DNA from: Deltaproteobacteria bacterium
GTDB lineage: Bacteria; CG2-30-53-67
Reading direction: 5' to 3'
DNA: 64,000 bases
NCBI GenBank assembly: GCA_013151235.1
Contig: JAADIO010000019.1
Span: 1-64,000 of the forward strand
The notes under the pieces were generated by a model, which saw nothing but the letters and a program-made list of their open reading frames with translations, did no database searches and was not told where the DNA came from. The translations under genes and the position numbers were made by a program. Positions 21,740 through 38,166 of this stretch are shown piece by piece. Numbering within the stretch: the stretch's first letter is position 1; every line of letters begins with the position of its first letter.

Positions 21740-22095
21740 AAGGTGATTGTCTCCCGGTCTATCATCTCTCCTGCGAGGGTCGGGATGTGGGTGACGGTGA
21801 AACCGTCTATGATTTCCTCTTCGGGAATCTCATAGACCTTGACGCAGGCCCCGCAGACGTACATCGGAATTTTGGCTTCAAGGACCATGGGGAACAGTTC
21901 CCGTACCGGGGTCAGATACCTCCCCTCGATCGTGTCGGCAACTCCCTTCCTTGCCATTTTCGCCCCTTCGAAGATGAAGAAGAGGGCCAGGTCCGCCCCT
22001 TCGCTGATAAGGGACGCAGCCAGGGCGATTGCTGCGTTGGATCGGTCCTGGTCGTCGGTGGAATGGGTGATAACGAGCATGATTTTCTTTTTCAT
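21736..22095 (-). CDS. DsrE-family sulfurtransferase-like protein
   Basis: LALFFIFEG and IPMYVCGAC motifs; 119 aa ending TITF. Confidence 0.8.
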   Translation of the reverse strand: MKKKIMLVITHSTDDQDRSNAAIALAASLISEGADLALFFIFEGAKMARKGVADTIEGRYLTPVRELFPMVLEAKIPMYVCGACVKVYEIPEEEIIDGFTVTHIPTLAGEMIDRETITF

Positions 22096-22146
22096 GATGG
22101 TTTCCCCCGTGGAAAGTTAAAAGATCAGACCGTTCATTTGGCCTCT

Positions 22147-23817
22147 TTATCGAAGGAACGGCAGAACATTGGTGAACTTCAGAAAAACAAGCAGGAGCAG
22201 AACGGCCAGACCCCGTTTCAGGAAGACCTCGGGGAGTTTCTTCTGGATCTTCGGCCCGATCTTTCCGCCGATGATCGCTCCCGCCGCGATGAGTGCGGCC
22301 ATGGTCCAGTCCGGCGGATAGCCCATCAGGGCGTAACGGGCGACGCCGCCGATGGAGGTGGCAAAGGTCCCGCAGAGTGAGATCGGAACGGCCAGGTACA
22401 TGGGAAATCCCATGACCGATGTCATGAAGGGGACAAGCATGAAACCGCCCCCCACGCCGAAGGCCGATGCGATACAGCCGATGACGATTCCACCGAAGAA
22501 GAGCGTAATCGGATTTGCGCGGAACTTCTCGCCCCAGAAGGTGAAATCGATTCCCATCGGCTGGAACCGGTCGATCCGGACGGCGCCCATCTCCGCCGTC
22601 CGCCCTTCGGCCCGGGCCTGTTTAACGGCTTCGTTGTATTTGGCCACGATGGCCTTGATTCCCTTCTTTTTGTTGATTCCCTTGCTGGTCGATTCCAGCC
22701 AGAGCTTGACTGCGAGGATCAGGCAGAAGAAACCCAGATAGAATTTATAGGCCTTCATCGGAAGGTAACGGGCCGAGTAGGTTGGGCCGATCCAGAAAGA
22801 GCCGATCAGAATTCCCGAAACGAAACAGAGGGCCACGGGCCAGGCAAGCCGCCGTTCCTTGAAATAGCCCCAGACGCCCGTGATGGGCGAGAAGATGGTC
22901 AAAAATAGGTTGGTCGGCTTGACCATGTTGGCGGCGTTGATTCCGATCATCCCCTGCGTTCCGAGGACGATGATCTGAAAGGCGGCGGTAAAGAGGCCTC
23001 CGGCCGCTCCCATGATGACGAACATGATCCCGATCAAAAGAGCGCCGAGAAAGACCACAAGAGGGTTCATGTAGGTCCCGGCGGCTTTGAAATAATAGCC
23101 GCTGCCGGTGATTTTAAAGTCTCCGGCGATTTGACCGTTGACCGTCACCGCCAGGTCCGTTCCGGGGGCCAGGTTCCGATTGGGGATCAGGGTAACGGAA
23201 TAGTCTCCCGTTGATTTGTCGAGGCGGAGATGGACGTCCCGATTCCATTTCTCCGGGCTTTCAGAGAAGTCGCTCAGGACCATCCGGGTGCTTCCGCCGC
23301 CGATCGGTTTCTCCTTCGAAATCGTGTTCATCCCGAACTTGTCTTCGTGGGCGAAGATCAGCATCTTCCACTGGGCCTCGGTCCGGATGGGGGTGAGCAT
23401 GGATCGGATTTTCGGGGGGATCTTCGTCCAGGGTTTGATCTTGTTGATTTTAACATCGTACCTGAAGGGGGGGAACCATTTGCCCCTCGAGATCATTTGC
23501 GGGTGTGCCAGTGCATCGGGCCTGTTGGTCACGATGTAGCAGGTCGGCGGAATTTCGGTCTCTCCGAATTTGTCCGCGAGTTTCTTTTTCTCTTGGGTTC
23601 CCATTGAGTCGGAACTTTGGAACCCTTTTTCGGCGGCAATTACCACGAAAAGGTCTTCCCCCGGCGGGATCCGTCCCTGCACGGTCATTGCCTCTCCGGC
23701 TCGCAACTGTTCCGTGGAGAGTCTGCCCGTGATCTCCGAGGCTGTTACGGAACCGATCGGCCACAGAACCGATGCGACCCAGATCAGGAGTACTGTAAAG
23801 AGTTTCTTGCGATTCAT
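22147..23817 (-). CDS. TauE/SafE sulfite-exporter-family protein with a large N-terminal extracytoplasmic domain
   Basis: Signal peptide, about 230 aa soluble region, then GAAGGLF and FGVGGGFMLVPF TauE repeats. Confidence 0.82.
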   Translation of the reverse strand: MNRKKLFTVLLIWVASVLWPIGSVTASEITGRLSTEQLRAGEAMTVQGRIPPGEDLFVVIAAEKGFQSSDSMGTQEKKKLADKFGETEIPPTCYIVTNRPDALAHPQMISRGKWFPPFRYDVKINKIKPWTKIPPKIRSMLTPIRTEAQWKMLIFAHEDKFGMNTISKEKPIGGGSTRMVLSDFSESPEKWNRDVHLRLDKSTGDYSVTLIPNRNLAPGTDLAVTVNGQIAGDFKITGSGYYFKAAGTYMNPLVVFLGALLIGIMFVIMGAAGGLFTAAFQIIVLGTQGMIGINAANMVKPTNLFLTIFSPITGVWGYFKERRLAWPVALCFVSGILIGSFWIGPTYSARYLPMKAYKFYLGFFCLILAVKLWLESTSKGINKKKGIKAIVAKYNEAVKQARAEGRTAEMGAVRIDRFQPMGIDFTFWGEKFRANPITLFFGGIVIGCIASAFGVGGGFMLVPFMTSVMGFPMYLAVPISLCGTFATSIGGVARYALMGYPPDWTMAALIAAGAIIGGKIGPKIQKKLPEVFLKRGLAVLLLLVFLKFTNVLPFLR

Positions 23818-23883
23818 GTCTCTCTCCATCCGTGCCCCTTCCATTCGGGCGGGGAGTGCGGCCGGTGATGAACCACTCATCAT

Positions 23884-24210
23884 TTACGGCTTTGAATAGC
23901 GTTCGATGACGGCATCGAGTCTTTTCAGAGGGGGTTCCACCCCGTCATAGAGGATCCCTCCTTCCGCTTCCACCGTTTCGATAAATTCCTTGCCGCTGAC
24001 GATTACCGTGTCTTCCGGTTCCATGAGGCGGCCGTTGATCAGTACGGCGGCCGGCGCCGGATCGTCCGGTTTCCGCTGATCGTCGGGAAGGGTTTCCATC
24101 CGGACATTTTTGTAGGCCTCCATCAGAACGATCGCCATGTCCATGTAAATGCGGCACCGGCCGGCCGGCGGCTGCTTGTTGATGATCTTGATCGTTATAG
24201 ATGGGTTCAC
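23884..24210 (-). CDS. Hypothetical small protein, possibly thioredoxin-like fold
   Basis: RBS AAGGAG before GTG; PPAGRCR and APAAVLING; directly upstream of the TauE gene. Confidence 0.6.
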   Translation of the reverse strand: MNPSITIKIINKQPPAGRCRIYMDMAIVLMEAYKNVRMETLPDDQRKPDDPAPAAVLINGRLMEPEDTVIVSGKEFIETVEAEGGILYDGVEPPLKRLDAVIERYSKP

Positions 24211-24407
24211 GGGCGGTCTCCTTCCTAAATATAGTTGATGCCGGATCTTTATTTTTGCAATTTACGGTTCCATATGAAAAAAGATATATCAGGTCGAAAA
24301 GGAAACTCAATTAAGAAATATTTTGGAAGCTCCAAGTAGATTTTATGGATTCGCAAAGAGTTTACCAAACGTTGTTTTATTTTACGAAAAATGCTGAAAA
24401 AAATTTC

Positions 24408-24436
24408 TTGACATCGCCTTCGGAGATCTATATATT
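24408..24436 (+). promoter_or_regulatory. Sigma-70 promoter of the dsr operon
   Basis: TTGACA-17-TATATT with an AT-rich upstream region. Confidence 0.7.
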
Positions 24437-24719
24437 AGCAACCCGTTATATCCCAGAATGTATTCCGGGTAGTAGCTTGCGCTGTTTTACTTAAAGATCA
24501 AGATCAAAAAATCATCTGCAAGAATATGACGAAAGAACCAAGCTGATTTTTGCATTAGTATTTCGTTATATTCTTATGTCTGTGAATTCCGGTTTCGATC
24601 CTTGGTTTCCGTCTTAGCAGTGGATGAAAGGTCGCCGGGTCCTGTCGCATTATTCGGGTTTTAAATGATCACATTTGTTTTTCCGATCCGAAGCTGTTTC
24701 CGGAGGGGCAATCGTTAAG

Positions 24720-25244
24720 ATGAAGTTGCAATCCTGCCTGAAAGCAAAGAGATCCGAGATTCTGACAAGATGGCACCGGGTGATCACCGATAGCTATTCC
24801 TCTGAGTCTGTTCCGTTTCTCAATAATCCGGATCCCTTTGCCAATCCTGTTGGAACGACCCTTCTGAAATCGATGGAAACTCTTCTGGATGAACTTCTAT
24901 CCGGAGCGTCTCCTGATCGGCTGGCTCCTGTCCTCGACCGGATTCTCCGCATCCGGGCCGTGCAGGATTTTCTCCCTTCCCAGGCGCTTGCCTTTCTTCC
25001 AGCTCTGAAGGATGTGGTCCGGGAGGTGATCGGAGAGGAGGAGACGGATCCGGTCTCCGAGGAGGTCAGGGAATTCGATGCATTGGTGGATCGGCTGACT
25101 CTCCTTGCCGTGGATATTTATGTGAAGTGCAGGGAGACCATTTATGAAATCCGGGTCCGGGAGTTCAAGGACCGGGCCTATAAACTCCTGGAACGAGCCG
25201 ATCTGGTTTGTGCAGCCGCCCCGGATTCTTCGGGAGGATTGTGA
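24720..25244 (+). CDS. dsrT: DsrT (RsbRD-N-like)
   Basis: DPFANPVG, ILRIRAVQDF and YVKCRETIYEIRV motifs; directly upstream of dsrM. Confidence 0.9.
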   Translation: MKLQSCLKAKRSEILTRWHRVITDSYSSESVPFLNNPDPFANPVGTTLLKSMETLLDELLSGASPDRLAPVLDRILRIRAVQDFLPSQALAFLPALKDVVREVIGEEETDPVSEEVREFDALVDRLTLLAVDIYVKCRETIYEIRVREFKDRAYKLLERADLVCAAAPDSSGGL

Positions 25245-25295
25245 GGATTTGAAACCGGAAAACGAGAAGGACTATTTCAGAGAGGTAAACGTCAG

Positions 25296-26348
25296 ATGAG
25301 AATTTTGCTTCCTTTGATCGCAGTCGTTGTTCTGGGTGCCGTCGCATTTTTGGGGGTGCAGACAGCGGGTTTACAATACTTCTTCGGGGTTGTGATCCCT
25401 TATGCAGCACTGGCGATATTTTTGTTGGGCGTGATCTACAGGATTCTGAGGTGGGCGGCTTCTCCGGTTCCCTTCAGAATCCCGACGACCTGCGGCCAGG
25501 AGAAATCTCTTCCCTGGATCAAAACGGATCCTCTGGAGAGCCCGAACGGCACGGCGGGTGTTATAGGCCGTATGGCGCTGGAGGTCTTTTTTTTCCGTTC
25601 CCTTTTCAGGAACCTGAAGTTCAGGTACAAGGCGGGCGATGGTTCAAATCCTTCCCTGACCTACCGCCGGACTCTCTGGCTCTGGCTCTTCGGTCTCACC
25701 TTCCACTGGTCCTTCCTCTTTGTTTTTGTCCGCCACCTTCGACTTTTTACACAGCCGATCCCCGCTTTTGTCTCGGCGATGAACGGCTGGGATGCAGGCC
25801 TTTCCAACATACTGCAACACTTTAATGTGCCCCCGCTTCATCTTGTCAATATCGTCGGTGCACCTCCCCTGCTGATCTCCGATGTGATCCTTGTAACGGC
25901 CGTGACGCTCCTTTTCCTCCGGAGGGTCTTGATCCCGCAGGTCCGCTATATCTCTCTTCCCGCCGATTATTTTCCGCTGTTCCTCATTTTCGCGATTGCG
26001 CTGAGCGGGATCTGTATGCGCTATTTTTTCAAGGTCGATGTGATTCATATCAAGGAACTGACGATGGGACTTGCCACCTTTCATCCGGTCGTCCCGGAGG
26101 GGATCGACGCCATATTTTTTGTGCATCTGCTTCTTGTCTGTACACTTTTTGCCTACTTTCCGTTCAGTAAGCTGGTCCATATGGCAGGGGTTTTTATGAG
26201 TCCTACGAGGAATCTGGCGAATAACAGCCGGGCAAAAAGGCATGTGAATCCCTGGAATTACCCGGTCAAGCTGCACTCCTATGAAGAGTATGAGGATGAG
26301 TATAGGGAACTGATGAAGAAGGCAGGTATTCCCGTGGAGAAGGATTAG
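25296..26348 (+). CDS. dsrM: DsrM membrane b-type cytochrome
   Basis: PVPFRIPTTCGQEKSLPWI, FHW..RHLR and FPFSKLVHMAGVFMSPTRNLANNSR motifs. Confidence 0.95.
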   Translation: MRILLPLIAVVVLGAVAFLGVQTAGLQYFFGVVIPYAALAIFLLGVIYRILRWAASPVPFRIPTTCGQEKSLPWIKTDPLESPNGTAGVIGRMALEVFFFRSLFRNLKFRYKAGDGSNPSLTYRRTLWLWLFGLTFHWSFLFVFVRHLRLFTQPIPAFVSAMNGWDAGLSNILQHFNVPPLHLVNIVGAPPLLISDVILVTAVTLLFLRRVLIPQVRYISLPADYFPLFLIFAIALSGICMRYFFKVDVIHIKELTMGLATFHPVVPEGIDAIFFVHLLLVCTLFAYFPFSKLVHMAGVFMSPTRNLANNSRAKRHVNPWNYPVKLHSYEEYEDEYRELMKKAGIPVEKD

Positions 26349-26353
26349 AGACT

Positions 26354-27964
26354 ATGGCTAAATACGTTGAGAAACCGGAAGAAACCGCACTGATCAATCA
26401 TCAACCTCCGAAAACCGGGTGGATGGAAACGCCGACGGAGTTCCGTCCGGGCAATTGGTGCTACGGCGGAAAACCCTCGGTACTTGAAGTGCTCGGGATT
26501 CCGAATCCGAGGGAGTGGAAGCCGACGGATGAGGACTGGAAGCTTCCGGCAAACTGGAAGGAGATCATTTACGAAGGATTGAAGGATCGCCTGAGTAAAT
26601 ACAGATCGTTTAAAGTCTTTCTCGACATCTGTGTTCGTTGCGGCGCCTGTGCGGATAAGTGCCACTTCTTTCTCGGGACCGGGGATCCGAAGAATATGCC
26701 CGTCCTTCGTGTGGAGCTTCTCCGTTCGGTTTACCGGAAGGATTTCACCCTGGCCGGAAAGATCCTCGGAAAAATTGCCGGGGCCCGGACCTTGACGAAG
26801 GATGTTGTGAAGGAGTGGTTTTCCTACTATTACCAGTGTACGGAATGCCGCCGCTGTTCCGTGTTCTGCCCCTACGGGATTGATACGGCGGAGATCACGA
26901 TGATGGCGCGGGAACTGCTTCACCTGGTCGGTGTCAATATCAACTGGGCGCTGGAACCGGCGGCCAAATGCTTTCAGACCGGGAACCATATGGGGCTCCA
27001 ACCGCACACCTTCAAGGACAGTATTGATTCCCTTTGTGAAGACATCGAAGATATAACAGGGGTTCATATCGAGGTTCCGCTGAACAAGAAAGGGGCGGAT
27101 GTCCTCTTTATTACGCCATCCGCCGATGTCTTCGCGGACCCGGGGATCTACACCTTCATGGGGTATCTCCTCTTGTTTGAACATATCGGTTTGAATTATA
27201 CCATGAGTACCTATGCCTCCGAGGGCGGGAATTTCGGTCTCTTTAATTCCCAGGAGATCATGAAACGATTAAATGCCAAAATGTACGCGGAGGCAAAGAG
27301 GTTAGGTGTGAAGTGGATTCTGGGCGGGGAATGCGGACACATGTGGCGGGTGGTCCATCAATACATGGATACGATGAACGGCCCCGCAGACTTCCTGGAG
27401 GTGCCGGTCTCTCCGGTTACGGGGACACGATTCGATAACGCCGCCTCCACCAAAATGGTACACATCGCTGAATTTACCGCCGACCTTATTAAACATAACA
27501 AGTTGAAACTCGATCCGAGCCGGAACAACCACCGAAAGACGACCTTCCATGATTCCTGCAATCCCGCCCGTGCGATGGGCATTCTTGAAGAACCGAGATA
27601 CATCCTGAAACATGTCTGCAACCACTTCACCGAGATGCCGAAAAACACGATTCGGGAGAAGACCTTCTGCTGCGGAAGCGGGACAGGACTGAATACGGAC
27701 GAGTACATGGATATCCGGATGCGGGGCGGGCTTCCCCGCGCGAACGCAGTCCGGCATGTCCATGAGCAAAACGATGTCGATCTTTTGACCTGTATCTGTG
27801 CTATTGATCGGGCGACCCTCACCCCTCTGATGCGGTACTGGGTTCCCGGCGTGGAGGTCTCCGGCCTGCATGAGCTGGTCGGGAATGCCCTCGTGATGGA
27901 GGGGGAACAGGAACGGAGCACCGATTTGCGGGAAGATCCTCTGGAGGGGATGGAGGATGTTTAG
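26354..27964 (+). CDS. dsrK: DsrK (Fe-S, CCG domain)
   Basis: CVRCGACADKC, CTECRRCSVFCP, GECGH, FHDSCN, FCCGSG and CAIDR motifs. Confidence 0.95.
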   Translation: MAKYVEKPEETALINHQPPKTGWMETPTEFRPGNWCYGGKPSVLEVLGIPNPREWKPTDEDWKLPANWKEIIYEGLKDRLSKYRSFKVFLDICVRCGACADKCHFFLGTGDPKNMPVLRVELLRSVYRKDFTLAGKILGKIAGARTLTKDVVKEWFSYYYQCTECRRCSVFCPYGIDTAEITMMARELLHLVGVNINWALEPAAKCFQTGNHMGLQPHTFKDSIDSLCEDIEDITGVHIEVPLNKKGADVLFITPSADVFADPGIYTFMGYLLLFEHIGLNYTMSTYASEGGNFGLFNSQEIMKRLNAKMYAEAKRLGVKWILGGECGHMWRVVHQYMDTMNGPADFLEVPVSPVTGTRFDNAASTKMVHIAEFTADLIKHNKLKLDPSRNNHRKTTFHDSCNPARAMGILEEPRYILKHVCNHFTEMPKNTIREKTFCCGSGTGLNTDEYMDIRMRGGLPRANAVRHVHEQNDVDLLTCICAIDRATLTPLMRYWVPGVEVSGLHELVGNALVMEGEQERSTDLREDPLEGMEDV

Positions 27965-28071
27965 CCGGGCCGGATATCCGGCTTCATCCGGTGGACAATA
28001 ATTCAAAATTATGAGAAGAGGTTTGGACCTCTTGATTTTCTTTAATCACACATGTTATGGAGGATTCAAGA

Positions 28072-28407
28072 ATGGCAACACTTGAAGTCAATGGAAAACA
28101 GTATGAACTGGATGAAGACGGTTTTCTGGCGGACATGAGCGAATGGAATGAGGACATTGCCGTTGCTCTGGCCAAGACCGAAAGCGTTGAAATGACCGAA
28201 GCCCATTGGGAGGTCGTCAATTTTCTGCGTGACTATTATGCCGAGTACAAAATTGCTCCTATGATCCGGATTCTGACCAAGGCGATCGGTAAGAAGCTGG
28301 GCAAGGAGAAAGGGAACACCAAGTATCTCTACGAGCTCTACCCGGCGGGACCGGCCAAGCAGGCCTGTAAAATTGCAGGGCTGCCCAAACCGACCGGTTG
28401 TGTGTAA
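28072..28407 (+). CDS. dsrC: DsrC
   Basis: DEDGFL; C-terminal ACKIAGLPKPTGCV with both conserved Cys. Confidence 0.96.
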   Translation: MATLEVNGKQYELDEDGFLADMSEWNEDIAVALAKTESVEMTEAHWEVVNFLRDYYAEYKIAPMIRILTKAIGKKLGKEKGNTKYLYELYPAGPAKQACKIAGLPKPTGCV

Positions 28408-28415
28408 AAGCAGAC

Positions 28416-28441
28416 GGCGGGGTTCCTCCCGCCTTATTATT
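28416..28441 (+). terminator. Hairpin after dsrC (weak terminator or stabiliser)
   Basis: GGCGGG-GTTCCT-CCCGCC followed by TTATTATT. Confidence 0.45.
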
Positions 28442-28593
28442 TCGATAAGAAAAGACCGGAGGGGGATGTTGAATCGTCGTCCCCGGTTACTCAAACGTAC
28501 CTTTGCAGGCTGAGGGGGTACGGGGAATGGCGGGCTCTTTCGGGTTCATGTGGAAGAGCAACGATATCTTTTTATACTTATGATGGAGGGGAG

Positions 28594-28950
28594 ATGAAAT
28601 TCGGAATTCTCATTCAGGAAGGCCCCTATAATCACCAGGCTTCGGATAGCGCTTATAATTTCATCCAGGCGTCACTGGAGAAAGGGCACGAGATCACCGG
28701 CGTATTCTTCTATAATGACGGTGTCATCAATACCACGAAGCTGATGGACATCCCTGCAGACGACCGGCACATCAGTAAACGCTGGTCTGAGTTGGGGGCG
28801 AAGGGGATCCAGTTAATCGTCTGCGTGGCGGCGGCCAAACGGCGGGGGATCAATCCCGACGTGTTGATTGATAATGCCCGTATCGACGGACTGGGGCAGC
28901 TCAGTGAGCTTTGTATTGAATCCGACCGATTGATCACGTTCGGTGACTGA
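28594..28950 (+). CDS. dsrE: DsrE/TusD
   Basis: GPYNHQASDSAYNF, VFFYNDGV and IVCVAAAKRRGI (active-site Cys). Confidence 0.93.
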   Translation: MKFGILIQEGPYNHQASDSAYNFIQASLEKGHEITGVFFYNDGVINTTKLMDIPADDRHISKRWSELGAKGIQLIVCVAAAKRRGINPDVLIDNARIDGLGQLSELCIESDRLITFGD

Positions 28951-28978
28951 TCGTCTCAGAAAGGAGCCGGAGACTCAA

Positions 28979-29350
28979 ATGGAAGAACAAGCGCCAAGGA
29001 AAATTATGTTTGTGAATCGAAAGGCACCGCATGGTTCCATCTATGCCTACGAAGGACTGGAAGTCATTCTCATCTTTGGGGCCTATGACCAGGAAATCAG
29101 CGCTGCATTTCTGGATGATGCCGTCCTTTCGTTGAAAAAAGGTCAGGATACATCTGAAATCGGGACCAAGGAGTTTTCTGCGACCTTCCGTGTGTTGGAA
29201 GCCTACGGGGTGGAAAACCGTTACGTGGAGAGGGAATCTCTGGAACAGCGCGGGCTGACGGAGGAAGACTTGGTCATGGATGTGGACGTTGTTGATGGAG
29301 CGACCCTCCGGAAATATATGGGAGAACAAGACGTCCTGCTGCCCTTTTAG
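28979..29350 (+). CDS. dsrF: DsrF/TusC
   Basis: FVNRKAPHGSIYAYEGLE, DDAVLSLKKGQ and RGLTEEDL motifs. Confidence 0.93.
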   Translation: MEEQAPRKIMFVNRKAPHGSIYAYEGLEVILIFGAYDQEISAAFLDDAVLSLKKGQDTSEIGTKEFSATFRVLEAYGVENRYVERESLEQRGLTEEDLVMDVDVVDGATLRKYMGEQDVLLPF

Positions 29351-29380
29351 TGATGTGGATACCTGCAAGGAGGAAGAACA

Positions 29381-29674
29381 TTGCTGCATATCGTGAATAA
29401 ATCACCATTTAAATACAGAAATCTGGATACCTGCGTACGCGTCTCTGAGAAAGAGGACCCAATCATTCTCATTGAAGATGGTGTCTACGCCGCCCTGAAG
29501 GGGTCCAGTATTGAAGGGCTCATGAAGAAGACCCTGGAGGACCACCCTGTTTTTGCAATCCGGGCGGATCTCAAGGCCCGGGGAATCGACGAGGTTATGG
29601 AGGGGGTAGAAGTCTGTGATTACTCCTGCTTTGTGGATATGGTGGAAAAGCATGTCCCCTATTCCTGGCTTTGA
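29381..29674 (+). CDS. dsrH: DsrH/TusB
   Basis: MLHIVNKSPF..LDTC, LIEDGVYAA and DLKARGI motifs. Confidence 0.93.
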   Translation: MLHIVNKSPFKYRNLDTCVRVSEKEDPIILIEDGVYAALKGSSIEGLMKKTLEDHPVFAIRADLKARGIDEVMEGVEVCDYSCFVDMVEKHVPYSWL

Positions 29675-29680
29675 GTCTGG

Positions 29681-30334
29681 ATGAGGAATGACAAAGCGGC
29701 GGCGAAGAAGCTGCTTCGGGAAGGCCGTTACCCGGAAATTCTCAGTCGTCTTGGAGAGAAGCGAAGGACCGTTCGTCTGCTCCGGTCTCTCCTGTATGAA
29801 GATGAACGGATCATAAAATGGCGGGCCGTGACCATGTTCGGCCGGTTGGCCCGGGAAAACCCGGAACTGATCATTCCGGAAGTGGATCGACTCATCTGGT
29901 CCCTGAATGATGAAGCCGGGAGTATTGGACGAAGCGCACCGGAAACCCTGGGTGAAATTGCCCGGAACAATGCACGGATCGCCCGGGATGGGGGAAAGGT
30001 CGTTGTTCACTACATTGAAGATACAGAGACCTGCCGTCCTCCGAACCGGAATCTCGAAATTCTTGTCGGTGTCCTCTGGGCGATAGGGAGAATCGGTGAA
30101 CGGCGGCCGGAGGAGGTGGAGGAGGTCCTTACAACGGTCGAGAGCTTCTGTAAAGACCCGGACGCCAATGTCCGGGGGCATGCTCTCTGGGCTCTTGGAC
30201 GAACGCGGGTGGCCGGATTTATTGAATCGATTCGAAATTGCATGGATGACGCCGGCAGTGTAATTATCTACGAAGATGAATGGTTAAGGTCTTGTACCGT
30301 GGGACAACTCGCGCAGGACGCTTTGCGACAATAG
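29681..30334 (+). CDS. HEAT-repeat protein (DVU0298-like)
   Basis: KWRAVTMFG, RLIWSLNDEAGSIGRSAPETLGEI and DPDANVRGHALWALG. Confidence 0.75.
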   Translation: MRNDKAAAKKLLREGRYPEILSRLGEKRRTVRLLRSLLYEDERIIKWRAVTMFGRLARENPELIIPEVDRLIWSLNDEAGSIGRSAPETLGEIARNNARIARDGGKVVVHYIEDTETCRPPNRNLEILVGVLWAIGRIGERRPEEVEEVLTTVESFCKDPDANVRGHALWALGRTRVAGFIESIRNCMDDAGSVIIYEDEWLRSCTVGQLAQDALRQ

Positions 30335-30472
30335 AAACAGCCGGGCGAACAAGTCGCCTGAAAATGATACGGAAAGGGTGACAACAAAAAAGGTGAAGAA
30401 GTGTGAATTTTTATCATTATTTTTTCCCTCTGGATTCTACTGCGGAGGGGCGGAGGAAAGGAGAGCTACGGT

Positions 30473-31693
30473 ATGGCAGATCAAAAATTAAGAGAAACTC
30501 CTCTTCTTGACGAGTTGAAGAAAGGCCCCTGGCCGAGTTTCGTCAACGACATGAAGAAGATGGCCGAACGGAAACCGATGATCAATGATCTTCTGGGACA
30601 GCTTGAGCTTTCTTACAAGGAGAAAAAGGGGCATTGGAAGCATGGTGGGCTCGTTGGCGTCATGGGATACGGCGGCGGGGTCATTGGGCGTTATTCCGAT
30701 GCCGCCGAGCAGTTCCCCGCCTGTGCGCATTTCCATACCATTCGTGTGAACCAGCCTTCCGGATGGTTTTACACTTCTGCGGCTCTCCGTGAACTTTGTG
30801 ATATCTGGGACCGGCATGGATCGGGTATGACGAACATGCATGGATCCACGGGCGACTGCGTCTTCCTGGGAACGACCACGGACGAGCTGGAGCCGATCTT
30901 TGCCGAGCTGACCGCCAAGGACTGGGATTTGGGCGGGTCCGGCTCCGATGTCCGGACGCCGAGCTGCTGTAACGGGATGGCCCGCTGTGAATATGCCTGC
31001 TACGATACCATGGATGCCTGTTATAACTTTACCATGGAGTATCAGGATGAGCTGCATCGTCCGGCCTTCCCTTATAAATGGAAGTTCAAATTCTCCGGTT
31101 GTCCCAATGATTGCGTGGCCTCGATTGCCCGTTCCGATATGTCCGTGATCGGGACTTGGCGGGATGATATCCGGATCGATCAGGCTGCCGTGCAAGAATA
31201 TGCCGACAGCGGCATGGAGATTCGTTCGGATGTGATTCGCAAATGTCCGACCTCCTGCATGAGCTACGACGGCAAGGAGATCACGATCGACAACAAGAAC
31301 TGCACTCGCTGCATGCACTGCATCAATGTCATGCCCAAAGCCCTTCGGCCCGGACTGGACAAGGGGGCGACGCTGCTGATCGGTGCCAAGGCCCCGATTA
31401 TTGAAGGAGCGCTTCTCGCCACGGTTCTCGTTCCCTTTATCAAGATGGACAAGGAGGATGATTACCAGGAATTCAAGGACCTGATCGAGCGGATCTGGGA
31501 TTTCTGGGATGACCATGGTGTGAATCGTGAACGGATCGGTGAATGTATTGAGCGTGTAGGGCTGGGGAATTTCCTCGAAGCAATCGAGGCCGATCCTCTG
31601 CCGGAGCATGTCAAGCATCCTCGTACGAACCCCTACATCTTCTACGATGAATATTTTGAGGAAGTGGATGACGCCGAGGCGGAGAAAGCATGA
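30473..31693 (+). CDS. dsrA: Dissimilatory sulfite reductase alpha subunit, reductive bacterial type
   Basis: [41 protein letters not shown] and [26 protein letters not shown] motifs. Confidence 0.97.
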
Positions 31694-31770
31694 TGCTTTC
31701 GGCAGGCAGTGGGGAGAATGCAAAGAGATAACGATTTTGAATTGATCATACACATTAGGAGGAAAAGGAA

Positions 31771-32856
31771 ATGGCTGAACCTGCAGCACCGAGAAAAACC
31801 GATATCGGACCGCCTCAATATGACCAGTTTCTCCATCCGGTCATTAAGAAGAACTACGGAAAGTGGAAATACCACGAGATTCTGAAACCGGGCGTCATGG
31901 TCCATGTCTCCGAAACGGGCGACAAGATCTATTCTATTCGTGTGGGGTCCCCCCGCCTGATCAGTGTCGATGTGATTCGGATGTTTGCCGATATGGCCGA
32001 CAAGTATTGTGACGGATATCTTCGTTTTACGAGCCGGAACAATGTCGAGTTCCTGACCGACAAGGAAGGGAATATCGATCCTCTGATCAAGGACATTCAG
32101 GCCAACGGTTTTCCCGTGGGCGGAACGGGAAACTCCATTTCAAATATTATTCACACCCAGGGATGGGTTCATTGTCACTCTGCGGCAACCGATGTTTCTG
32201 GTGTGGTGAAAGCGACGATGGACGACCTCTATGAGTACTTTGTGGAGATGAAACTTCCCCACAAGATCAAGATTGCGGCGGCTTGCTGCCTCAATATGTG
32301 TGGGGCCGTTCACTGCTCCGATATTGCCATTCTGGGGATTCACCGGCGTCCGCCTCAGATCGACGACGCGCAAGTTTCAAACGTCTGTGAGATTCCGACG
32401 ACCGTTTCGTCCTGTCCCACGGCGGCGATTCGTCCGACGACGGTTGAAGGCAAGCAGACCGTCAAGGTTGACGGCGACCGGTGCATGTTCTGTGCGAACT
32501 GCTACACGGTCTGCCCGGCCATGCCGATTGCCGATCCGCTGAACGACGGCATCTCGATCTGGGTCGGCGGCAAGGTCTCCAATGCCCGTTCGGAGCCTAT
32601 GTTCACGAAGCTGGCGGTTCCCTTTATTCCGAACAATCCGCCCCGCTGGCCGGAAGTGACTGAGGCGATCAAGAAGATCGTTGAGGTCTATGCCGCCGGT
32701 GCACAGCGTTACGAACGGCTTGGGGAATGGATTGACCGTATCGGCTGGCCGCAATTCTTTGATCTGACCGGATTTGAATTCACGAAATATCATATTGATG
32801 ATTTCAGGCATGCAGGCGAGACCTTCCATCGGTCCGCCCAGATCAAATTCAAATAG
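31771..32856 (+). CDS. dsrB: Dissimilatory sulfite reductase beta subunit
   Basis: [38 protein letters not shown] and PNNPPRWP motifs. Confidence 0.97.
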
Positions 32857-32866
32857 GAGAATGATT

Positions 32867-33112
32867 ATGTCGGAAATGACGACCGAGCAGATTGCGGATG
32901 AGATGTTCAACCTGGTGAAGGAGTATGCAGGGAAGAAGCGTTTCAAGGCGACCGACCTCACCAAAGAAGTTATTGCCAAGCATGGTGACAGTGTCAACAA
33001 AAAGGCCTGCAAGGCAGCGCTTCGTACCTTAATGGATTCCGGACGCTGTGTTTACGGCTATGCCGGTGGGAGTTTTATTTCACTTCCCGGGATAGAAGGT
33101 GCAGCCAAGTAA
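32867..33112 (+). CDS. dsrD: DsrD
   Basis: 81 aa directly after dsrB; KKRFKATDL..KAALRTLMDSGRCVYGYAGGSFISLP winged-helix-like pattern; RBS AGGAGA. Confidence 0.85.
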   Translation: MSEMTTEQIADEMFNLVKEYAGKKRFKATDLTKEVIAKHGDSVNKKACKAALRTLMDSGRCVYGYAGGSFISLPGIEGAAK

Positions 33113-33167
33113 TCAAGGCGCTTTCATCGGACTGATCTTATGATTCGTTATTGAATGTGTTTGAACG

Positions 33168-33262
33168 GATAGCCGGTCGACGCGGGACCCAAGGTCGGCT
33201 CTGTCGGGTGTCCGGCTATCTTTTCCTCTTTTGCGGAACAAAGTTCCGCAAAAGAGGAAAAG
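33168..33262. other. Tandem stem-loops between dsrD and dsrL
   Basis: GATAGCCGG..CCGGCTATC (33168-33220) and a perfect 20 bp stem CTTTTCCTCTTTTGCGGAAC-AAA-GTTCCGCAAAAGAGGAAAAG (33220-33262). Confidence 0.75.
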
Positions 33263-33398
33263 CAGACGTACAGGCTGGTCAGTGAGTGTGTAGATTGTCA
33301 ACCCTCCGGGATCGTAATAAAGCCTCAGACAATGTAACCGTAAAGAAGGGATTGCAAGGCAATCATATTCAGGTAACCTTTTAAATAAGGAGTGTATT

Positions 33399-35087
33399 AT
33401 GGCGATTGTGGTGAGAAAAATACAGCGCAAGATCGGACTGAGGCGGGGCGGCAGGGGAACGCAGACATCGACGCAACGGCCGCAGTATAATTTGAAGGAG
33501 TCTCCCTGTATTCATGCTTGTCCGAGCGGTGAGGATATCCGTGCGTATCTGGTGCAGATTGCCCAGACCGAAAAATATGACTGGTCCTATGATGATGCCT
33601 TCAAAGAAGCCTGGTATACGATCACGGACAAGAACCCCTTTCCCGCCGTTATGGGAAGGGTCTGTCCTCACCCTTGTGAAAGTGAGTGCAACCGGAAAGA
33701 CAAGGATGCCGCCGTGGGGATCAACAACATGGAGCGGTTCATCGGTGACTATGGTATCAAGAATAAACTGAAACTGAAGAAGGTGGACGGAGAGGGTGGT
33801 TCGGAAAAAGTCGCCGTGGTTGGTGCCGGTCCTTCCGGGCTTTCCTGTGCATACCAGTTAGCCCGTCGGGGTTATTCCGTAACGGTATTCGAAATGTTTG
33901 ACAAGGGAGGCGGGATGCTTCGTTTCGGGATCCCCGTCTACCGCCTTCCCGATGATGTTCTCGATGCTGAAATTCAGCGGATCGCTGAGATGGGGGTTGA
34001 GATTAAGTACAACACCAAGATCGGTCGGGATATCACCTTTGCGGATTTGAAGAAGGATTATAAGGCGATCTATCTCTCCATCGGTGCGCACACCGGATGG
34101 GATATGAATATCCCCGGTGAGGATGCCGGGAATGTATTGACCGGCGCCGATTATCTCCACAAAATCAATGCCGGGGAAAAGGTGGAAATCGGGAATAAGG
34201 TGGTGGTGATCGGTGGTGGTGATACCGCTATTGATGCCGCCATGACTTCACTCCGCCTTGGGGCGGATGTTACGCTTCTTTATCGGCGGACCCGGAACGA
34301 GATGCCGGCCATCGACCATGATATTACCCTGGCCGAAGAGGAAGGGATCAATTTTGAATTTCTGTCTGCTCCGGTGGAGGTGATCAAAAACGGAGACGGG
34401 AAGGCGACGGCACTGAAATGCCTTAAGATGGAATTAGGTGAACCGGATGATTCGGGCCGTAGAAGGCCGGTCCCGATCGAAGGTTCGGAGTATACCGTTG
34501 ATGCGACGGCTATCATCTCCGCCATTGGCCAGGCCCCGGATTGGGAAGGCCTGGATTCCTTTAAAAACGAAAAAGGCTGGATTACCGCCGACGATCACGG
34601 GATTACGGAAACGGCCGGTGTCTTTGCCGGGGGGGATGTGACGGTCGGATTGGGCATTGCCACGCAGGCTATTGGTCTCGGGCGGAAGACGGCGGAAGCT
34701 ATTCATCATTTTCTTCGGGACGAAGAGGTTCCGGAACCGGAAACGCTGCCGGTTGTTCATTCCGATGCCATGAACCTCGGTCATTATGTTTCGCTGGAAC
34801 GGCAGAATGAAAAATACCTTCCGGCGGATGATCGGAAGACCAATTTCAATGAGCTGCGCTTTGCCTTGACCGAGGAACAGGCGATTGAAGAGGCGAAACG
34901 ATGCATGAGCTGTGGCCGATGTTTTGACTGTGACAACTGTTTTACCTTCTGTTCCGACAGTGCTGTCAAGAAGCTTGATAAAAATGAAAATCCCTTCGGT
35001 CAGCATTATAAATTTGTCCTCGATACCTGTCAGGGATGCAAAAAGTGTGCGGAAGAATGTCCTTGCGGCTACATTGATATGGTCTGA
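33399..35087 (+). CDS. dsrL: DsrL iron-sulfur flavoprotein (DsrL-2-like, YRR motif)
   Basis: SPCIHACPSGEDIR, GRVCPHPCE, GAGPSG, GGGDTA, LYRR; C-terminal CMSCGRCFDCDNC and CQGCKKCAEECPCG ferredoxin domain. Confidence 0.92.
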   Translation: MAIVVRKIQRKIGLRRGGRGTQTSTQRPQYNLKESPCIHACPSGEDIRAYLVQIAQTEKYDWSYDDAFKEAWYTITDKNPFPAVMGRVCPHPCESECNRKDKDAAVGINNMERFIGDYGIKNKLKLKKVDGEGGSEKVAVVGAGPSGLSCAYQLARRGYSVTVFEMFDKGGGMLRFGIPVYRLPDDVLDAEIQRIAEMGVEIKYNTKIGRDITFADLKKDYKAIYLSIGAHTGWDMNIPGEDAGNVLTGADYLHKINAGEKVEIGNKVVVIGGGDTAIDAAMTSLRLGADVTLLYRRTRNEMPAIDHDITLAEEEGINFEFLSAPVEVIKNGDGKATALKCLKMELGEPDDSGRRRPVPIEGSEYTVDATAIISAIGQAPDWEGLDSFKNEKGWITADDHGITETAGVFAGGDVTVGLGIATQAIGLGRKTAEAIHHFLRDEEVPEPETLPVVHSDAMNLGHYVSLERQNEKYLPADDRKTNFNELRFALTEEQAIEEAKRCMSCGRCFDCDNCFTFCSDSAVKKLDKNENPFGQHYKFVLDTCQGCKKCAEECPCGYIDMV

Positions 35088-35224
35088 ACCTCCGGGGGAA
35101 GAACCACGGTAATCCATGATGTTGCCGTCCGGGCTTGGCCGTGCTGAAAAAGAGTTCCGGGTGTTGTTCACGGAACAAGCTTTTTGTTTGCTGCCGGGTA
35201 TGACGAGATCCACAAGGAGTCAAA

Positions 35225-35689
35225 ATGGAAGAAATTACGTTCAATGAAATCATCAGCTATGCGAAGATCGCGGAAGAGAATGCGAAAAGCTTTTATTTGA
35301 ATGCCGCAGAAGAGATGGAACAGCGAAATGTGAAAGAATATCTTGAAACGCTGGCGGCGGAGGAGCAGACTCACATTAACCGCCTTGAGGCCCTGCAGAA
35401 GACCATCCAGAGCCGGGGAGAGGTTCCCGATCTTCATTCGGAGATCCGGAGTCTCGGCTACGCGGATTTCATCAAGGCTGCCGAACTCGGCAAAGATGCT
35501 TCCTATAAGGATGTCTTGGTCGTTGCCATGTCCAACGAGAAAGAGGCCATCCGGAACTATGACAATTTTTCCCGTTTTATCGATAACGAAGAGGCCAAAA
35601 AACTGTTCACGGTCCTGGCCGACGAAGAACGTCGTCATCTGAAACGATTTGAAGAAGAGTATGACGAACTCCAGGACCAAAATTATTAA
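35225..35689 (+). CDS. Ferritin-like/rubrerythrin diiron domain protein
   Basis: Two E..FY/Y...ExxH units (EEQTH, EERRH); no rubredoxin domain. Confidence 0.85.
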   Translation: MEEITFNEIISYAKIAEENAKSFYLNAAEEMEQRNVKEYLETLAAEEQTHINRLEALQKTIQSRGEVPDLHSEIRSLGYADFIKAAELGKDASYKDVLVVAMSNEKEAIRNYDNFSRFIDNEEAKKLFTVLADEERRHLKRFEEEYDELQDQNY

Positions 35690-35717
35690 ACCAAACCGGG
35701 ATTGAGGGTAAACCATA

Positions 35718-36569
35718 ATGTATGAAATTCTGGAAAAGAAGGTGTGGCAGGAAGAGAAGCCGAGAATTACGGAGTTCAAGGTCAATGCGCCGGAGATTGC
35801 CCGCGCTCACCAAGCGGGCCAGTTTGTGATCCTCATTGTCGACGAGAACGGAGAGCGGATTCCCCTGACCATTGCCGACAAGGACGCGGAAAAAGGGACC
35901 ATCAATATTCTCTTTCAGGAGGTGGGGAAGTCTACGATCTGTCTGGGCAAGCTGGAAGTGGGAGAGAAGATCCATCACGTTACGGGGCCGTTGGGTAAAC
36001 CGACCCATGTGGAGAAGTTCGGTACCGTTGTCTGTGTCGGTGGAGGGATCGGAATCGCTCCGGTCCATCCCATTGCCAAGGCGATGAAGGATGCCGGCAA
36101 CAAGGTGATTTCCATTCTCGGATCTCGATCAAAGGACCTGCTGATCTATGAAGACAAGATGAATGCGGCCAGCAGTGAGGTCCGCGTGACTACGGATGAC
36201 GGGACCTACGGCCGTCACGGTTTTGTGACCGATGAACTCAAGGCAATGATTGAAGAAGAAAAGATCCCCATCGATCTGGTGGTCGTGATTGGACCTCCGA
36301 TCATGATGAAGTTCGTCTGCAAGGTGACGGAACCGCACAAGATCAAGACCTTTGCCAGCCTGAATACGATCATGGTAGACGGGACCGGGATGTGCGGTGC
36401 CTGCCGTGTGACCGTCGGGGGGAAGACCAAGTTTGTCTGTGTGGACGGACCGGAATTTGACGGGCATCAGGTCGATTTTGAAGAGATGATGATGCGCCAG
36501 AAACAGTATCTCACGGAAGAAAAAATCGCCGTGGAACGCTGTGGGAAAGGGGCCTGCCATCAGGGTTGA
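35718..36569 (+). CDS. nfnA: NfnA/SudB small subunit (FAD/NAD-binding, 2Fe-2S)
   Basis: AGQFVIL, ERIPLTIAD, GGGIGIAP and MVDGTGMCGACRV..CVDGPEFDG motifs. Confidence 0.9.
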   Translation: MYEILEKKVWQEEKPRITEFKVNAPEIARAHQAGQFVILIVDENGERIPLTIADKDAEKGTINILFQEVGKSTICLGKLEVGEKIHHVTGPLGKPTHVEKFGTVVCVGGGIGIAPVHPIAKAMKDAGNKVISILGSRSKDLLIYEDKMNAASSEVRVTTDDGTYGRHGFVTDELKAMIEEEKIPIDLVVVIGPPIMMKFVCKVTEPHKIKTFASLNTIMVDGTGMCGACRVTVGGKTKFVCVDGPEFDGHQVDFEEMMMRQKQYLTEEKIAVERCGKGACHQG

Positions 36570-36669
36570 AAGATCCGTGTTGACGGCTTTCGCTGAAAGT
36601 CCGTCTGTCGCGGTCATCCGGCATTCTGCTTAAAACCATCAACATAAGTTCTGGAGAGGATTCATAAGA

Positions 36670-38145
36670 ATGAGTGATGAGAAACAGCTAAAAGGGGCCT
36701 CAAAGGCGAAACCGAAGAGACCGAAAATCCCCCGTCAGGCAATGCCGGAACAGGATCCGCATGTCCGGGCGAAAAACTTTGATTCCGTTACGCTGGGGTA
36801 TACCGATGAACAGGCGATAGCGGAAGCCACGCGGTGTCTTCAGTGCAAGAAACCCTTCTGCATACAGGGGTGTCCTGTTTCAATCAACATCCCCGGTTTT
36901 ATTCAGGCAATCAAGGACCGTGATTATGCAAAGGCGGTCCAGGTCATCAAGGAGACAAATCTTCTGCCGGCGGTCTGCGGACGAGTCTGTCCACAGGAAG
37001 AGCAGTGCGAGAACAGATGTATCCTGGGTAAAAAACAAGAGCCTGTTGCGATCGGCCGATTGGAGCGTTTTGTGGCGGATTATGAAGCCGCTCACGGTGA
37101 ATCGCCGTTGCCGGAGCTTCCGTCGAAGACGGGAAAGAAGGTTGCCGTGGTCGGTGCCGGTCCGGGGGGGTTGACGGTTGCAGGCGATCTGATCCGTAAA
37201 GGACATGATGTGACCGTCTTCGAGGCCCTCCACAAGGCGGGCGGTGTTCTGGTGTATGGAATCCCGGAATTCCGGCTGCCCAAGGCGATCGTGGAACGGG
37301 AAGTCGATTATCTGAAAAAGCTTGGCGTTGTTTTCAAAATGAACCATGTGATCGGGAAGATCCGGACCATCGATCAATTGATGAAGGAAGACGGGTTTGA
37401 TGCTGTTTTTATCGGGAGCGGCGCCGGTCTGCCCTGGTTCATGGATATTCCCGGTGAGAACTTGAATGGAGTTTTCTCCGCGAATGAATACCTGACCCGG
37501 AACAATCTGATGAAAGCCTTTGATTTTCCGAACTATGATACCCCGATCAAACGGTTTAAGAATGTTGCCGTGATCGGTGGTGGGAATGTGGCCATGGATT
37601 CCGTTCGGACGGCTCTTCGACTGGGAGCCGACAATGCCTACATTGTTTATCGACGAGGACGGGAAGAGATGCCGGCCCGGAAAGAGGAAGTGGATCATGC
37701 CGAGCATGAAGGGGTGCAGTTTAAGAACCTGACAGCCCCCGTGCGGATCCTCGGGAATGAAGACGGTTGGGTGACGGGCCTGGAATGCCTTAAAATGGAA
37801 TTAGGTGAACCGGACGCCTCTGGACGGCGCCGTCCGATCCCGATCGAGGGCTCGGAATTTGTTCTGGATATGGATGCCGTAATCATTGCGATCGGGACCA
37901 GTGCCAATCCTCTGATCGGCCAGACCACGCCGGATCTGAAACTGAGCCGTCGAGGTTACATTGAGGTCGAAAATGAGACTACCGGCCGCAGCAGCAAGAA
38001 AGGGGTTTTCGCCGGAGGAGACATCGTAACCGGTGCGGCAACCGTGATCCTGGCGATGGGAGCGGGACGAAATGCCGCCAATGCCATTCAGCAATACCTG
38101 GAGACGGGTGAATGGTGGACGCCGAACGGCGACGGCGAAAAGTAG
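36670..38145 (+). CDS. nfnB: NfnB/SudA large subunit (GltD-like)
   Basis: EATRCLQCKKPFCIQGCPV, CGRVCPQEEQCE, YGIPEFRLP, YRR and GAATVILAMGAG motifs; adjacent to nfnA with no gltB. Confidence 0.9.
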   Translation: MSDEKQLKGASKAKPKRPKIPRQAMPEQDPHVRAKNFDSVTLGYTDEQAIAEATRCLQCKKPFCIQGCPVSINIPGFIQAIKDRDYAKAVQVIKETNLLPAVCGRVCPQEEQCENRCILGKKQEPVAIGRLERFVADYEAAHGESPLPELPSKTGKKVAVVGAGPGGLTVAGDLIRKGHDVTVFEALHKAGGVLVYGIPEFRLPKAIVEREVDYLKKLGVVFKMNHVIGKIRTIDQLMKEDGFDAVFIGSGAGLPWFMDIPGENLNGVFSANEYLTRNNLMKAFDFPNYDTPIKRFKNVAVIGGGNVAMDSVRTALRLGADNAYIVYRRGREEMPARKEEVDHAEHEGVQFKNLTAPVRILGNEDGWVTGLECLKMELGEPDASGRRRPIPIEGSEFVLDMDAVIIAIGTSANPLIGQTTPDLKLSRRGYIEVENETTGRSSKKGVFAGGDIVTGAATVILAMGAGRNAANAIQQYLETGEWWTPNGDGEK

Positions 38146-38166
38146 CTGTTTCTTAAAATAAGATGT

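Follow-up and report, generated by a model that had tools for sequence, protein, structure and literature searches.

Whether the Dsr pathway can run in both directions within one organism is an open question of the sulfur cycle, and gene-based labels such as "reducer" and "oxidiser" depend on the answer. The question is raised by a cluster of dsr genes on contig JAADIO010000019.1 of a genome labelled G000, of which positions 1-64,000 were analysed (the window, 64,000 nucleotides in length; gene coordinates refer to it). A preliminary description, made from the letters alone, had noted a co-oriented cluster in which a reductive-type DsrAB and a DsrD are combined with DsrEFH and DsrL, and had termed the operon chimeric. 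All twelve genes are present in the order dsrT-M-K-C-E-F-H-HEAT-A-B-D-L, all on the + strand (24.7-35.1 kb), and with the exception of the DsrD they match profile models:

24675-25244, +: dsrT (Pfam RsbRD_N, 59 bits); the probable start is the in-frame ATG at 24720
25296-26348, +: dsrM, membrane cytochrome b (NF038037, 513 bits, cut-off 300)
26354-27964, +: dsrK, Fe-S/CCG subunit (NF045796, 750 bits, cut-off 400)
28057-28407, +: dsrC (PF04358, 164 bits)
28594-28950, +: dsrE of type I, active-site Cys in VCVAAA (TIGR03012, 118 bits, above cut-off)
28943-29350, +: dsrF (TIGR03010, 125 bits, cut-off 94)
29381-29674, +: dsrH, Cys in LDTC (TIGR03011, 91 bits, above cut-off)
29681-30334, +: HEAT-repeat protein of the DVU0298 family (NF045662, 135 bits, cut-off 75)
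30473-31693, +: dsrA copy 1, reductive bacterial type (TIGR02064, 587 bits, cut-off 393)
31771-32856, +: dsrB copy 1 (TIGR02066, 524 bits, cut-off 342)
32867-33112, +: divergent DsrD, 81 aa, predicted winged helix, beginning 10 nt past dsrB
33399-35087, +: dsrL copy 1, NfnB/GltD-like flavoprotein of the DsrL-2 type (NF009410, 642 bits; Fer4_20, Pyr_redox_2 and a C-terminal Fer4_21 at residues 507-561)

The term chimeric is nevertheless too strong: the genome contains a second dsrAB with its own dsrL, and DsrEFH need not serve the reductive enzyme. At about 2.6 Mb, the genome makes this lineage a compact test case, with one DsrC, one DsrMK, one DsrEFH and two DsrAB-DsrL modules in an arrangement conserved across several genera. 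With one DsrC and one DsrMK to two DsrAB-DsrL modules, a common core with two directional modules is the simplest reading. We lean, with some reserve, towards an arrangement in which a shared core (DsrMK, DsrC and DsrEFH) would serve both the adjoining reductive module and an oxidative module located elsewhere in the genome, the direction being set by the dsrAB-L module that is expressed. Such a two-module layout suggests a switchable or disproportionating sulfur metabolism; the preliminary description had proposed a reversible or sulfur-disproportionating Dsr pathway.

A second dsrAB-L locus and the types of the two copies

The genome (2.62 Mb in 73 contigs; completeness 99%, contamination estimate 0) was searched for a second dsrAB and for sat, apr, qmo and sox genes, all of which the preliminary description had named as targets, and each of these searches was successful. 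The second dsrA (484 bits) lies on contig C27 and is followed by dsrB (473 bits) and a second dsrL (579 bits), with no dsrD. The identity of copy 1 and copy 2 amounts to 52% for DsrA and 50% for DsrL. Elsewhere in the genome we find aprA (920 bits), two sat genes, qmoC beside sat (442 bits), soxB (794 bits) and two COX1-family (haem-copper oxidase) genes; for narG, no match in the genome exceeds the cut-off (best 39 bits). About 2 kb beyond the second dsrL, contig C27 also carries a transposase fusion gene (REP-associated tyrosine transposase plus DnaA C-terminal-like domain; L005:6629-7675, -).

The two copies were typed against related sequences. A scan of species genomes with the DsrA alignment yielded the 80 loci with the closest DsrA, which form the base of all counts of loci or genomes out of 80 given here. 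The closest DsrA is only 72% identical and the set spans many phyla (Zixibacteria, Acidobacteriota, Ignavibacteriota, Myxococcota and others), with Desulfobulbales at 60-62%. A scan of viral contigs added 40 loci with dsrA and 35 viral DsrA rows, 12 of which entered a FastTree and nine an IQ-TREE phylogeny. Phage dsrA probably derives from sulfur-oxidising hosts, and we take the viral rows as stand-ins for oxidiser-type DsrA. The viral contigs carry dsrA alone or with dsrC and provide no synteny label. In a class sample around a metagenome-assembled genome (MAG) titled Acidithiobacillales, a high-scoring reductive-like DsrA occurs in 69 of 401 genomes; these rows were left out of the trees.

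In the IQ-TREE run (60 rows, 413 columns, rooted with DsrB as a long paralogue outgroup; the rows are without archaeal, Firmicutes, Desulfovibrio or cultured-oxidiser DsrA), copy 1 falls inside a clade with 100/100 support that comprises five copy-1 rows and 29 reductive rows, including Desulfofustis glycolicus DSM 9705 and Desulfobulbaceae. Its placement near DsrA of Aquicultor/Actinomycetota has weak support. Copy 2 lies outside the reductive clade (100/100 split), and the FastTree phylogeny of 120 rows reproduces the same main split. The reductive type assigned earlier to the DsrAB of the cluster thus stands, without any branching in an oxidative clade.

The sequence motifs follow the trees. 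DsrA copy 1 has the HWKHGG, HFHTxR(V/I)NQP-type and ASIARSD motifs, present in the translation as first described, as are VCVAAA of DsrE and LDTC of DsrH. The motif xWKHGG occurs in 89 of 89 DsrA rows of the reductive clade, versus 0 of 25 among the remaining rows; that it defines the type was stated in the preliminary description, and here it is a correlation with the clade. YWK-GG and EFHT(L/V)R(V/I)QPP, the oxidative signature named in the preliminary description, are found in 17 of 17 viral and sister-family DsrA. In copy 2 the same one-residue gap is present (xWx-GT, 8 of 8), but the residues are its own: HWL-GT and RFNTIRILEP take the place of the YWK-GG and EFHTLRVQPP of oxidiser-like rows. 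The sister family of the same phylum (L134-L137 and L142; G009-G013) harbors only DsrA with the oxidiser signature (YWK-GG), often as two tandem copies, and in G010 DsrEFH is found nearby. With an oxidiser-only sister family and a mixed window family, one small phylum spans oxidative and mixed states.

Conservation in relatives

The phylum of G000 is represented by 14 species-level genomes in the collection, whose loci were scored with the window proteins. All 14 contain dsrA, and 11 of the 14 have two matches. The order C-E-F-H-HEAT-A-B is the same in all seven family relatives whose contig reaches upstream (G001-G004 and G006-G008), and it is kept across at least five genera. The HEAT gene precedes dsrA in each of these seven, as it does in locus L058; a literature search for DVU0298 found nothing related to the HEAT protein. 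Homologues of dsrT are located between dsrC and dsrM in many related loci, and come first in the cluster in the family relatives. A2-B2-L2 is present in seven of eight family relatives. In G004 it shares strand and contig with the reductive module and precedes dsrT by about 3 kb; in G006 it is on the same contig as the reductive module, about 11 kb away.

The same-strand block extends beyond dsrL by a rubrerythrin-like gene and an NfnAB-like pair, and ends at a hairpin (38167-38204):

35225-35689, +: rubrerythrin-like protein (PF02915, 52 bits)
35718-36569, +: NfnA-like FAD/NAD-binding subunit (NF004862, 407 bits)
36670-38145, +: NfnB-like (GltD-type) subunit (TIGR01316, 611 bits, cut-off 472)

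In the family relatives, D-L-Rbr-NfnA (Rbr, rubrerythrin) follows C-E-F-H-HEAT-A-B wherever the contig continues. Rubrerythrin stands after dsrL in seven of seven relatives with a contig reaching there, and NfnB is found in four relatives whose fetched locus reaches it (L126, L129, L130; partly others). None of the 80 loci from other phyla has rubrerythrin and NfnAB after dsrL, save for the rubrerythrin in L058. The linkage suggests an NADPH/ferredoxin connection to DsrL-2.

Both DsrL proteins of G000 have the YRR motif, as do eight of eight copy-1 and six of six copy-2 proteins of the family; the sister-family DsrL has SAV in place of YRR (5 of 5). The YRR motif has been tied to the NADP(H)-specific DsrL-2 (Loffler 2020). 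The DsrL that had been recognised in the cluster is therefore a DsrL-2.

Proposed operation in two directions

In the reductive mode, i.e. sulfite reduction or the reductive half of a disproportionation, DsrA1B1 would be activated by the DsrD-like protein and reduce sulfite onto DsrC. The resulting DsrC trisulfide would be recycled by DsrMK, and DsrL-2 would supply NADPH; NfnAB, encoded next to it, would produce this NADPH from NADH and reduced ferredoxin. In the oxidative mode, DsrEFH would load sulfane sulfur onto the same DsrC, and DsrA2B2 with its own DsrL-2 would oxidise the DsrC-borne sulfur to sulfite. Conversion of sulfite to sulfate may proceed via AprA, Qmo and Sat, with thiosulfate fed in by Sox and electrons passed to the haem-copper oxidases. 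Which of the two modes prevails would be decided by the expression of one or the other dsrAB-L module.

DsrC is the single DsrC/TusE-family gene of the whole genome, and its C-terminus, ...CKIAGLPKPTGCV, contains both cysteines (...C-x10-C-V); the best solved relative is 1yx3_A (171.5 bits). The VCVAAA cysteine of DsrE and the LDTC cysteine of DsrH align with those of the 2hy5 chains. In this scheme DsrEFH would transfer persulfide to DsrC. With a shared core, DsrEFH would be placed beside dsrC because DsrC is its partner, and not for service to the reductive enzyme.

Several observations weigh against a shared core with two directional modules. DsrEFH is linked to the reductive copy and not to copy 2, the opposite of what Diao 2023 describes for genomes with both types. 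In Desulfurivibrio and cable bacteria, reductive-type enzymes are reported to serve in sulfide oxidation or in disproportionation, and one module might do both. With the DsrB root, copy 2 is the sister of the reductive clade (99/98) and not cleanly oxidative, the sister-family and viral rows branching more basally. A grouping of copy 2 with the sister-family and viral rows, a constraint that was named after the tree had been seen, costs 1.9 log-likelihood units and is merely not rejected (approximately unbiased test, p 0.44). Both DsrL proteins are NADP(H)-type DsrL-2 and hence no marker of direction by themselves; the DsrD call fails the Pfam model; and dsrJOP is absent from the cluster in G000, where the spacer between dsrK and dsrC (27965-28056) measures 92 nt. 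On its position in the tree, copy 2 probably stands at the interface of reductive and oxidiser-like DsrA, the position that Klier 2024 assigns to the "transitionary phyla".

The absence of dsrJOP is not general in the family. In G007, which belongs to the same genus, dsrJ, dsrO and dsrP (169, 306 and 498 bits) are located between dsrK and dsrC (L126:4709-7059), and a gap of about 2.4 kb separates dsrK and dsrC in four relatives, namely G007, where it corresponds to dsrJOP, and G001, G002 and G006. The three genes are also absent in G004, and the K-C spacers of G000 and G004 are alike (92-111 nt). Either dsrJOP was lost twice, or the cluster recombines. Distant copies exist in G000: a DsrJ on contig C25 (153 bits), and a DsrP on contig C39 (428 bits) with an adjoining DsrO-like gene, at 40-44% identity.

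Alternative explanations

A less probable but serious alternative is a disproportionator, or a sulfide oxidiser like Desulfurivibrio and the cable bacteria, in which the module of the window together with DsrEFH would do the main work both ways and copy 2 would be accessory or a remnant. DsrEFH is joined to copy 1 in all eight family genomes where this is visible, DsrD marks reduction or disproportionation in the literature, and DsrEFH-like transferases occur in many organisms with a reductive DsrAB (Plum-Jensen 2026). The DsrEFH considered here is, however, of the canonical type I, whereas those organisms have type II, and both copy 2 and the dsrL belonging to it are intact and retained in seven of eight family relatives, which argues for selection on copy 2.

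We regard as unlikely, and as less probable than the disproportionator, an organism that simply reduces sulfite or sulfate, with DsrEFH and copy 2 left over from a reductive-to-oxidative transition and no longer of use in energy metabolism. According to Klier 2024, mixed sets are what remains of such a transition, and sat, aprA, qmoC, dsrMK, dsrC and dsrD are all present. Remnants are nonetheless at odds with the retained catalytic cysteines (nine of nine homologues for DsrE and eight of nine for DsrH), with reading frames that are all intact in a gene order shared by several genera, and with the presence of soxB and haem-copper oxidases.

It is very improbable that the dsrEFH genes encode TusBCD for tRNA 2-thiouridine synthesis, outside the Dsr pathway. 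The models TIGR03012, TIGR03010 and TIGR03011 cover both TusBCD and DsrEFH, and the TusD-specific model NF001237 is passed as well (99.8 bits, cut-off 92). Against this, DsrE scores 131.6 bits to 2hy5_A versus 69.7 to 2d1p_A, and DsrH 67.9 bits to 2hy5_C versus 33.7 to 2d1p_C, i.e. about twice as high to DsrE/DsrH as to YheN/YheL, in a comparison that consists of two references (2hy5 DsrEFH and 2d1p YheN/YheL) and no tree. The genes are located between dsrC and dsrA in eight genomes, and the sole TusE/DsrC-family protein of the genome has both DsrC cysteines. A grouping with tRNA-thiolation TusDCB, which the preliminary description had named as a refuting outcome, is not seen in these comparisons.

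An assembly or binning chimera of two organisms is the least credible account: the genome has 73 contigs, some with runs of N, but the same order recurs in seven other species-level genomes, G004 has both modules on one contig, the G+C content is even across the block (0.50-0.54) and the contamination estimate is nil, and the recurrent order and even G+C exclude it for practical purposes.

The divergent DsrD

The 81-aa protein encoded after dsrB is accepted as a divergent DsrD, although membership in the Pfam family is not given. The Pfam DsrD model PF08679 has no match to the window protein at E<=10, and searches of Protein Data Bank sequences and profiles with it matched no DsrD chain. Among 35 members of the divergent family, five reach PF08679 at E<=1 (best 0.0016) and none reaches its cut-off, while the model matches 10 of 10 canonical DsrDs from Desulfobulbales loci. 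Surveys relying on PF08679, which misses the DsrD of a large multi-phylum group, would therefore under-call dsrD.

AlphaFold2 predicts a winged helix (H-H-H plus beta hairpin) with a pLDDT confidence score of 84.8. Foldseek and VIA-align return generic winged-helix domains, with the solved DsrD absent among the rows listed, which is no proof that the folds differ. Compared by hhalign, the divergent and the canonical DsrD family align over 62 collinear columns (probability 39%, E 3e-4). In the ESM Atlas, the nearest clusters bear the automatic name DsrD (0.97); in one cluster, at 0.95, PF08679 is assigned to 25% of the members.

With a hidden Markov model (HMM) of the divergent family, the gene that follows dsrB is recognised as a member in 53 of the 80 related loci and in eight of nine copy-1 loci of the phylum; in the ninth, the contig stops at dsrB. 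An HMM of canonical DsrD adds 19 loci, so that a DsrD of either kind follows dsrB in 72 of 80. Of the eight loci with neither kind, five stop within dsrB and three, from Acidobacteriota, run A-B-L. No DsrD follows dsrB in the seven copy-2 loci or in the five sister-family loci. The earlier identification thus holds as regards a conserved winged-helix family after dsrB, and is to be qualified in that this family is divergent and outside the Pfam model. The three A-B-L loci (L045, L052 and L061; Bryobacterales/Acidobacteria) pass straight from dsrB to dsrL with the sequence available.

DsrD has been reported to bind and activate DsrAB (Ferreira 2022). For a complex of DsrA1, DsrB1 and the DsrD-like protein, structure prediction gives an ipSAE interface score of 0.63 (median of three runs) versus 0.00 for the best control; of 80 solved complexes, 58 reach the mark used, as do 2 of 110 mismatched pairs. 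The runs agree in at least 68% of their contacts, and the pLDDT of the partner is at least 78. The predicted contacts of DsrD include residues 56-68 of DsrA, i.e. the KHGG loop, on which the divergent DsrD is predicted to dock. Across 35 DsrA from DsrD-bearing loci, the predicted contact positions are 90% conserved, versus 70% overall; the DsrA of copy 2 is identical at 13 of 27 of them. The interaction of DsrD with DsrAB is reportedly treated by Barbosa et al. in Protein Science (2024), and the interface predicted here may already be in print.

Transcription signals and a possible molecular switch

The single transcription unit of the preliminary description is hypothetical. The dsrC-dsrE spacer measures 186 nt and contains a hairpin, and the dsrD-dsrL spacer measures 286 nt. 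The following signals were recorded:

24408-24436, +: promoter-like site TTGACA-17-TATATT upstream of dsrT (11 of 12 positions match; weak evidence)
28416-28433, +: terminator-like hairpin directly after dsrC (7 pairs, 6 of them G-C, then a T-rich tail)
33171-33262, +: two-hairpin element in the dsrD-dsrL spacer, aligned in seven family genomes
38167-38204, no strand assigned: strong two-way terminator-like hairpin at the end of the block (15-17 pairs, T runs on both strands)

As a whole, the promoter and terminator scans of the region are not above shuffled sequence (12 versus 11.7 expected and 21 versus 16.5, respectively). For the two-hairpin element, 28 pairs are predicted from the seven-genome alignment, 10 of them with compensatory changes. 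In its second stem the flanking T and A runs pair with each other, and the element is thus no classic terminator. A search of Rfam over positions 24000-38800 found no family above the gathering score, the two-hairpin element included.

A more detailed scheme, which we consider doubtful as a whole, would combine these elements into a bidirectional Dsr pathway with a molecular switch. Two modules would share one core, and DsrD would act as a selector that docks on the KHGG loop, present in the reductive copy only, and activates that copy alone. The stoichiometry of the module would be set by the two-hairpin element of the dsrD-dsrL spacer together with the hairpin behind dsrC, and NfnAB would tie DsrL-2 to ferredoxin. 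If this were true, reduced ferredoxin could be a product of sulfur oxidation and, in the other direction, a driver of sulfite reduction.

Neighboring genes and further observations

The block is flanked by further genes:

21736-22095, -: DsrE-family protein in the divergent upstream unit (PF02635, 59 bits; similarity to DsrE2 is weak)
22147-23883, -: 578-aa membrane protein with a TauE/SafE sulfite-exporter domain at residues 277-569 (PF01925, 119 bits)
38248-38613, -: lone DsrF/TusC-like paralogue just beyond the terminator-like hairpin (TIGR03010, 109 bits, cut-off 94; PF02635 match)

The divergent unit upstream of dsrT (20579-24310, -) consists of a small open reading frame, the TauE/SafE protein, the DsrE-family protein and a multihaem cytochrome c. 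No domain is assigned to the 276-residue N-terminus of the TauE/SafE protein. A multihaem cytochrome is also located between the second dsrL and dsrT in the relative G004. A gene for an NAD kinase (18594-19442, +) is found 5 kb upstream of the cluster, whose DsrL-2 and NfnAB handle NADP(H).

The genome contains twelve DsrE-family genes in all. Contig C72 carries a very divergent DsrE-DsrE-DsrH-like triad (L096:868-3104, -; Pfam 38, 27 and 23 bits) directly after ThiF and JAB genes; this triad could represent a type-II-like DsrEFH or else a sulfur-carrier system. On contig C48 (39806-41068), a molybdopterin-enzyme-like frame has one in-frame TGA and is possibly a selenoprotein such as formate dehydrogenase.

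Comparison with known systems

The closest known case is a MAG of the candidate phylum CG2-30-53-67. Loffler 2020 describes one MAG with dsrABDL-2 and rdsrABL-2 and a dsrTMKJOPCEFH cluster "elsewhere" in the genome, and proposes that one of the two sets serves oxidation and the other reduction; Diao 2023 gives the same combination for a single MAG of CG2-30-53-67, and in Klier 2024 this phylum is one of five in which dsrA, B, C, D, E and L are retained ("group two, transitionary phyla"). The likeness extends to the reductive dsrAB-dsrD-DsrL-2, the second, oxidiser-like dsrAB-DsrL-2, and dsrT, dsrMK, dsrC and dsrEFH in the genome; the phylum of G000 is likewise tiny, its 14 species genomes all containing dsrA. 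The two differ in that T-M-K-C-E-F-H continues here into HEAT-A-B-D-L on one contig, as in seven relatives, whereas TMKJOPCEFH of the MAG lies elsewhere. They differ also in dsrJOP: the cluster of the MAG includes it, and here it belongs to the cluster of G007 but not to those of G000 and G004. The downstream rubrerythrin and NfnAB are not mentioned in the accessible accounts of the MAG.

A second group of relatives are the A-B-D-L-C-T-M-K clusters of Acidobacteriota, Zixibacteria, Ignavibacteriota, Myxococcota and others ("group three" of Klier). In these clusters dsrAB is likewise followed by a member of the divergent DsrD family and by a YRR-type DsrL, and their DsrA is 65-72% identical to the window copy. 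Unlike the window, where the order is T-M-K-C-...-A-B-D-L, they have no DsrEFH: a canonical DsrE occurs beside the closest DsrA in one of the 80 loci (L085) and in three of the 80 whole genomes searched. The rarity of mixed sets claimed in the preliminary description is borne out by this count; for the present lineage the set was already in print. Only one dsrA match was found in each of five genomes searched for a second dsrAB, namely three Desulfopila MAGs, the Acidithiobacillales-titled MAG and a Pseudomonadota-titled MAG.

The canonical oxidative cluster of purple sulfur bacteria has the order dsrABEFHCMKLJOPNRS in Allochromatium vinosum. Clusters of this type resemble the window in a type-I DsrEFH with the same active-site context, in that DsrEFH adjoins dsrC, and in a DsrC that is closest to 1yx3_A. 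In the window, by contrast, the neighboring DsrAB is reductive and accompanied by DsrD, DsrL is a DsrL-2 and not a DsrL-1, and no JOP is present in the cluster.

MAGs of Candidatus Aquicultor and Actinomycetota (Diao 2023) combine a reductive DsrA-B-D-L and a canonical DsrE in one genome (L008 and L043), but with DsrE on a separate contig and no contiguous C-E-F-H-A-B block. The type-II DsrEFH of cable bacteria and Desulfobacterota (Plum-Jensen 2026) is likewise a sulfur transferase to DsrC alongside a reductive DsrAB; it is less than 30% identical to type I and located with tusA and yeeE, whereas the DsrEFH of the window passes the type-I models. According to the same source, reductive dsrAB is found in only 2.4% of the genomes with type-I dsrEFH.

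The combination of dsr genes itself has thus already been published for this lineage, in three papers. Added here are the conserved contiguity of DsrEFH with the reductive copy, a JOP that is present in some and missing in other genomes of one genus, rubrerythrin and NfnAB as linked genes, a divergent DsrD family that escapes PF08679 and the correlation of the KHGG loop with DsrD. As DsrEFH can be physically joined to a reductive enzyme, its synteny is of less use as a marker of direction.

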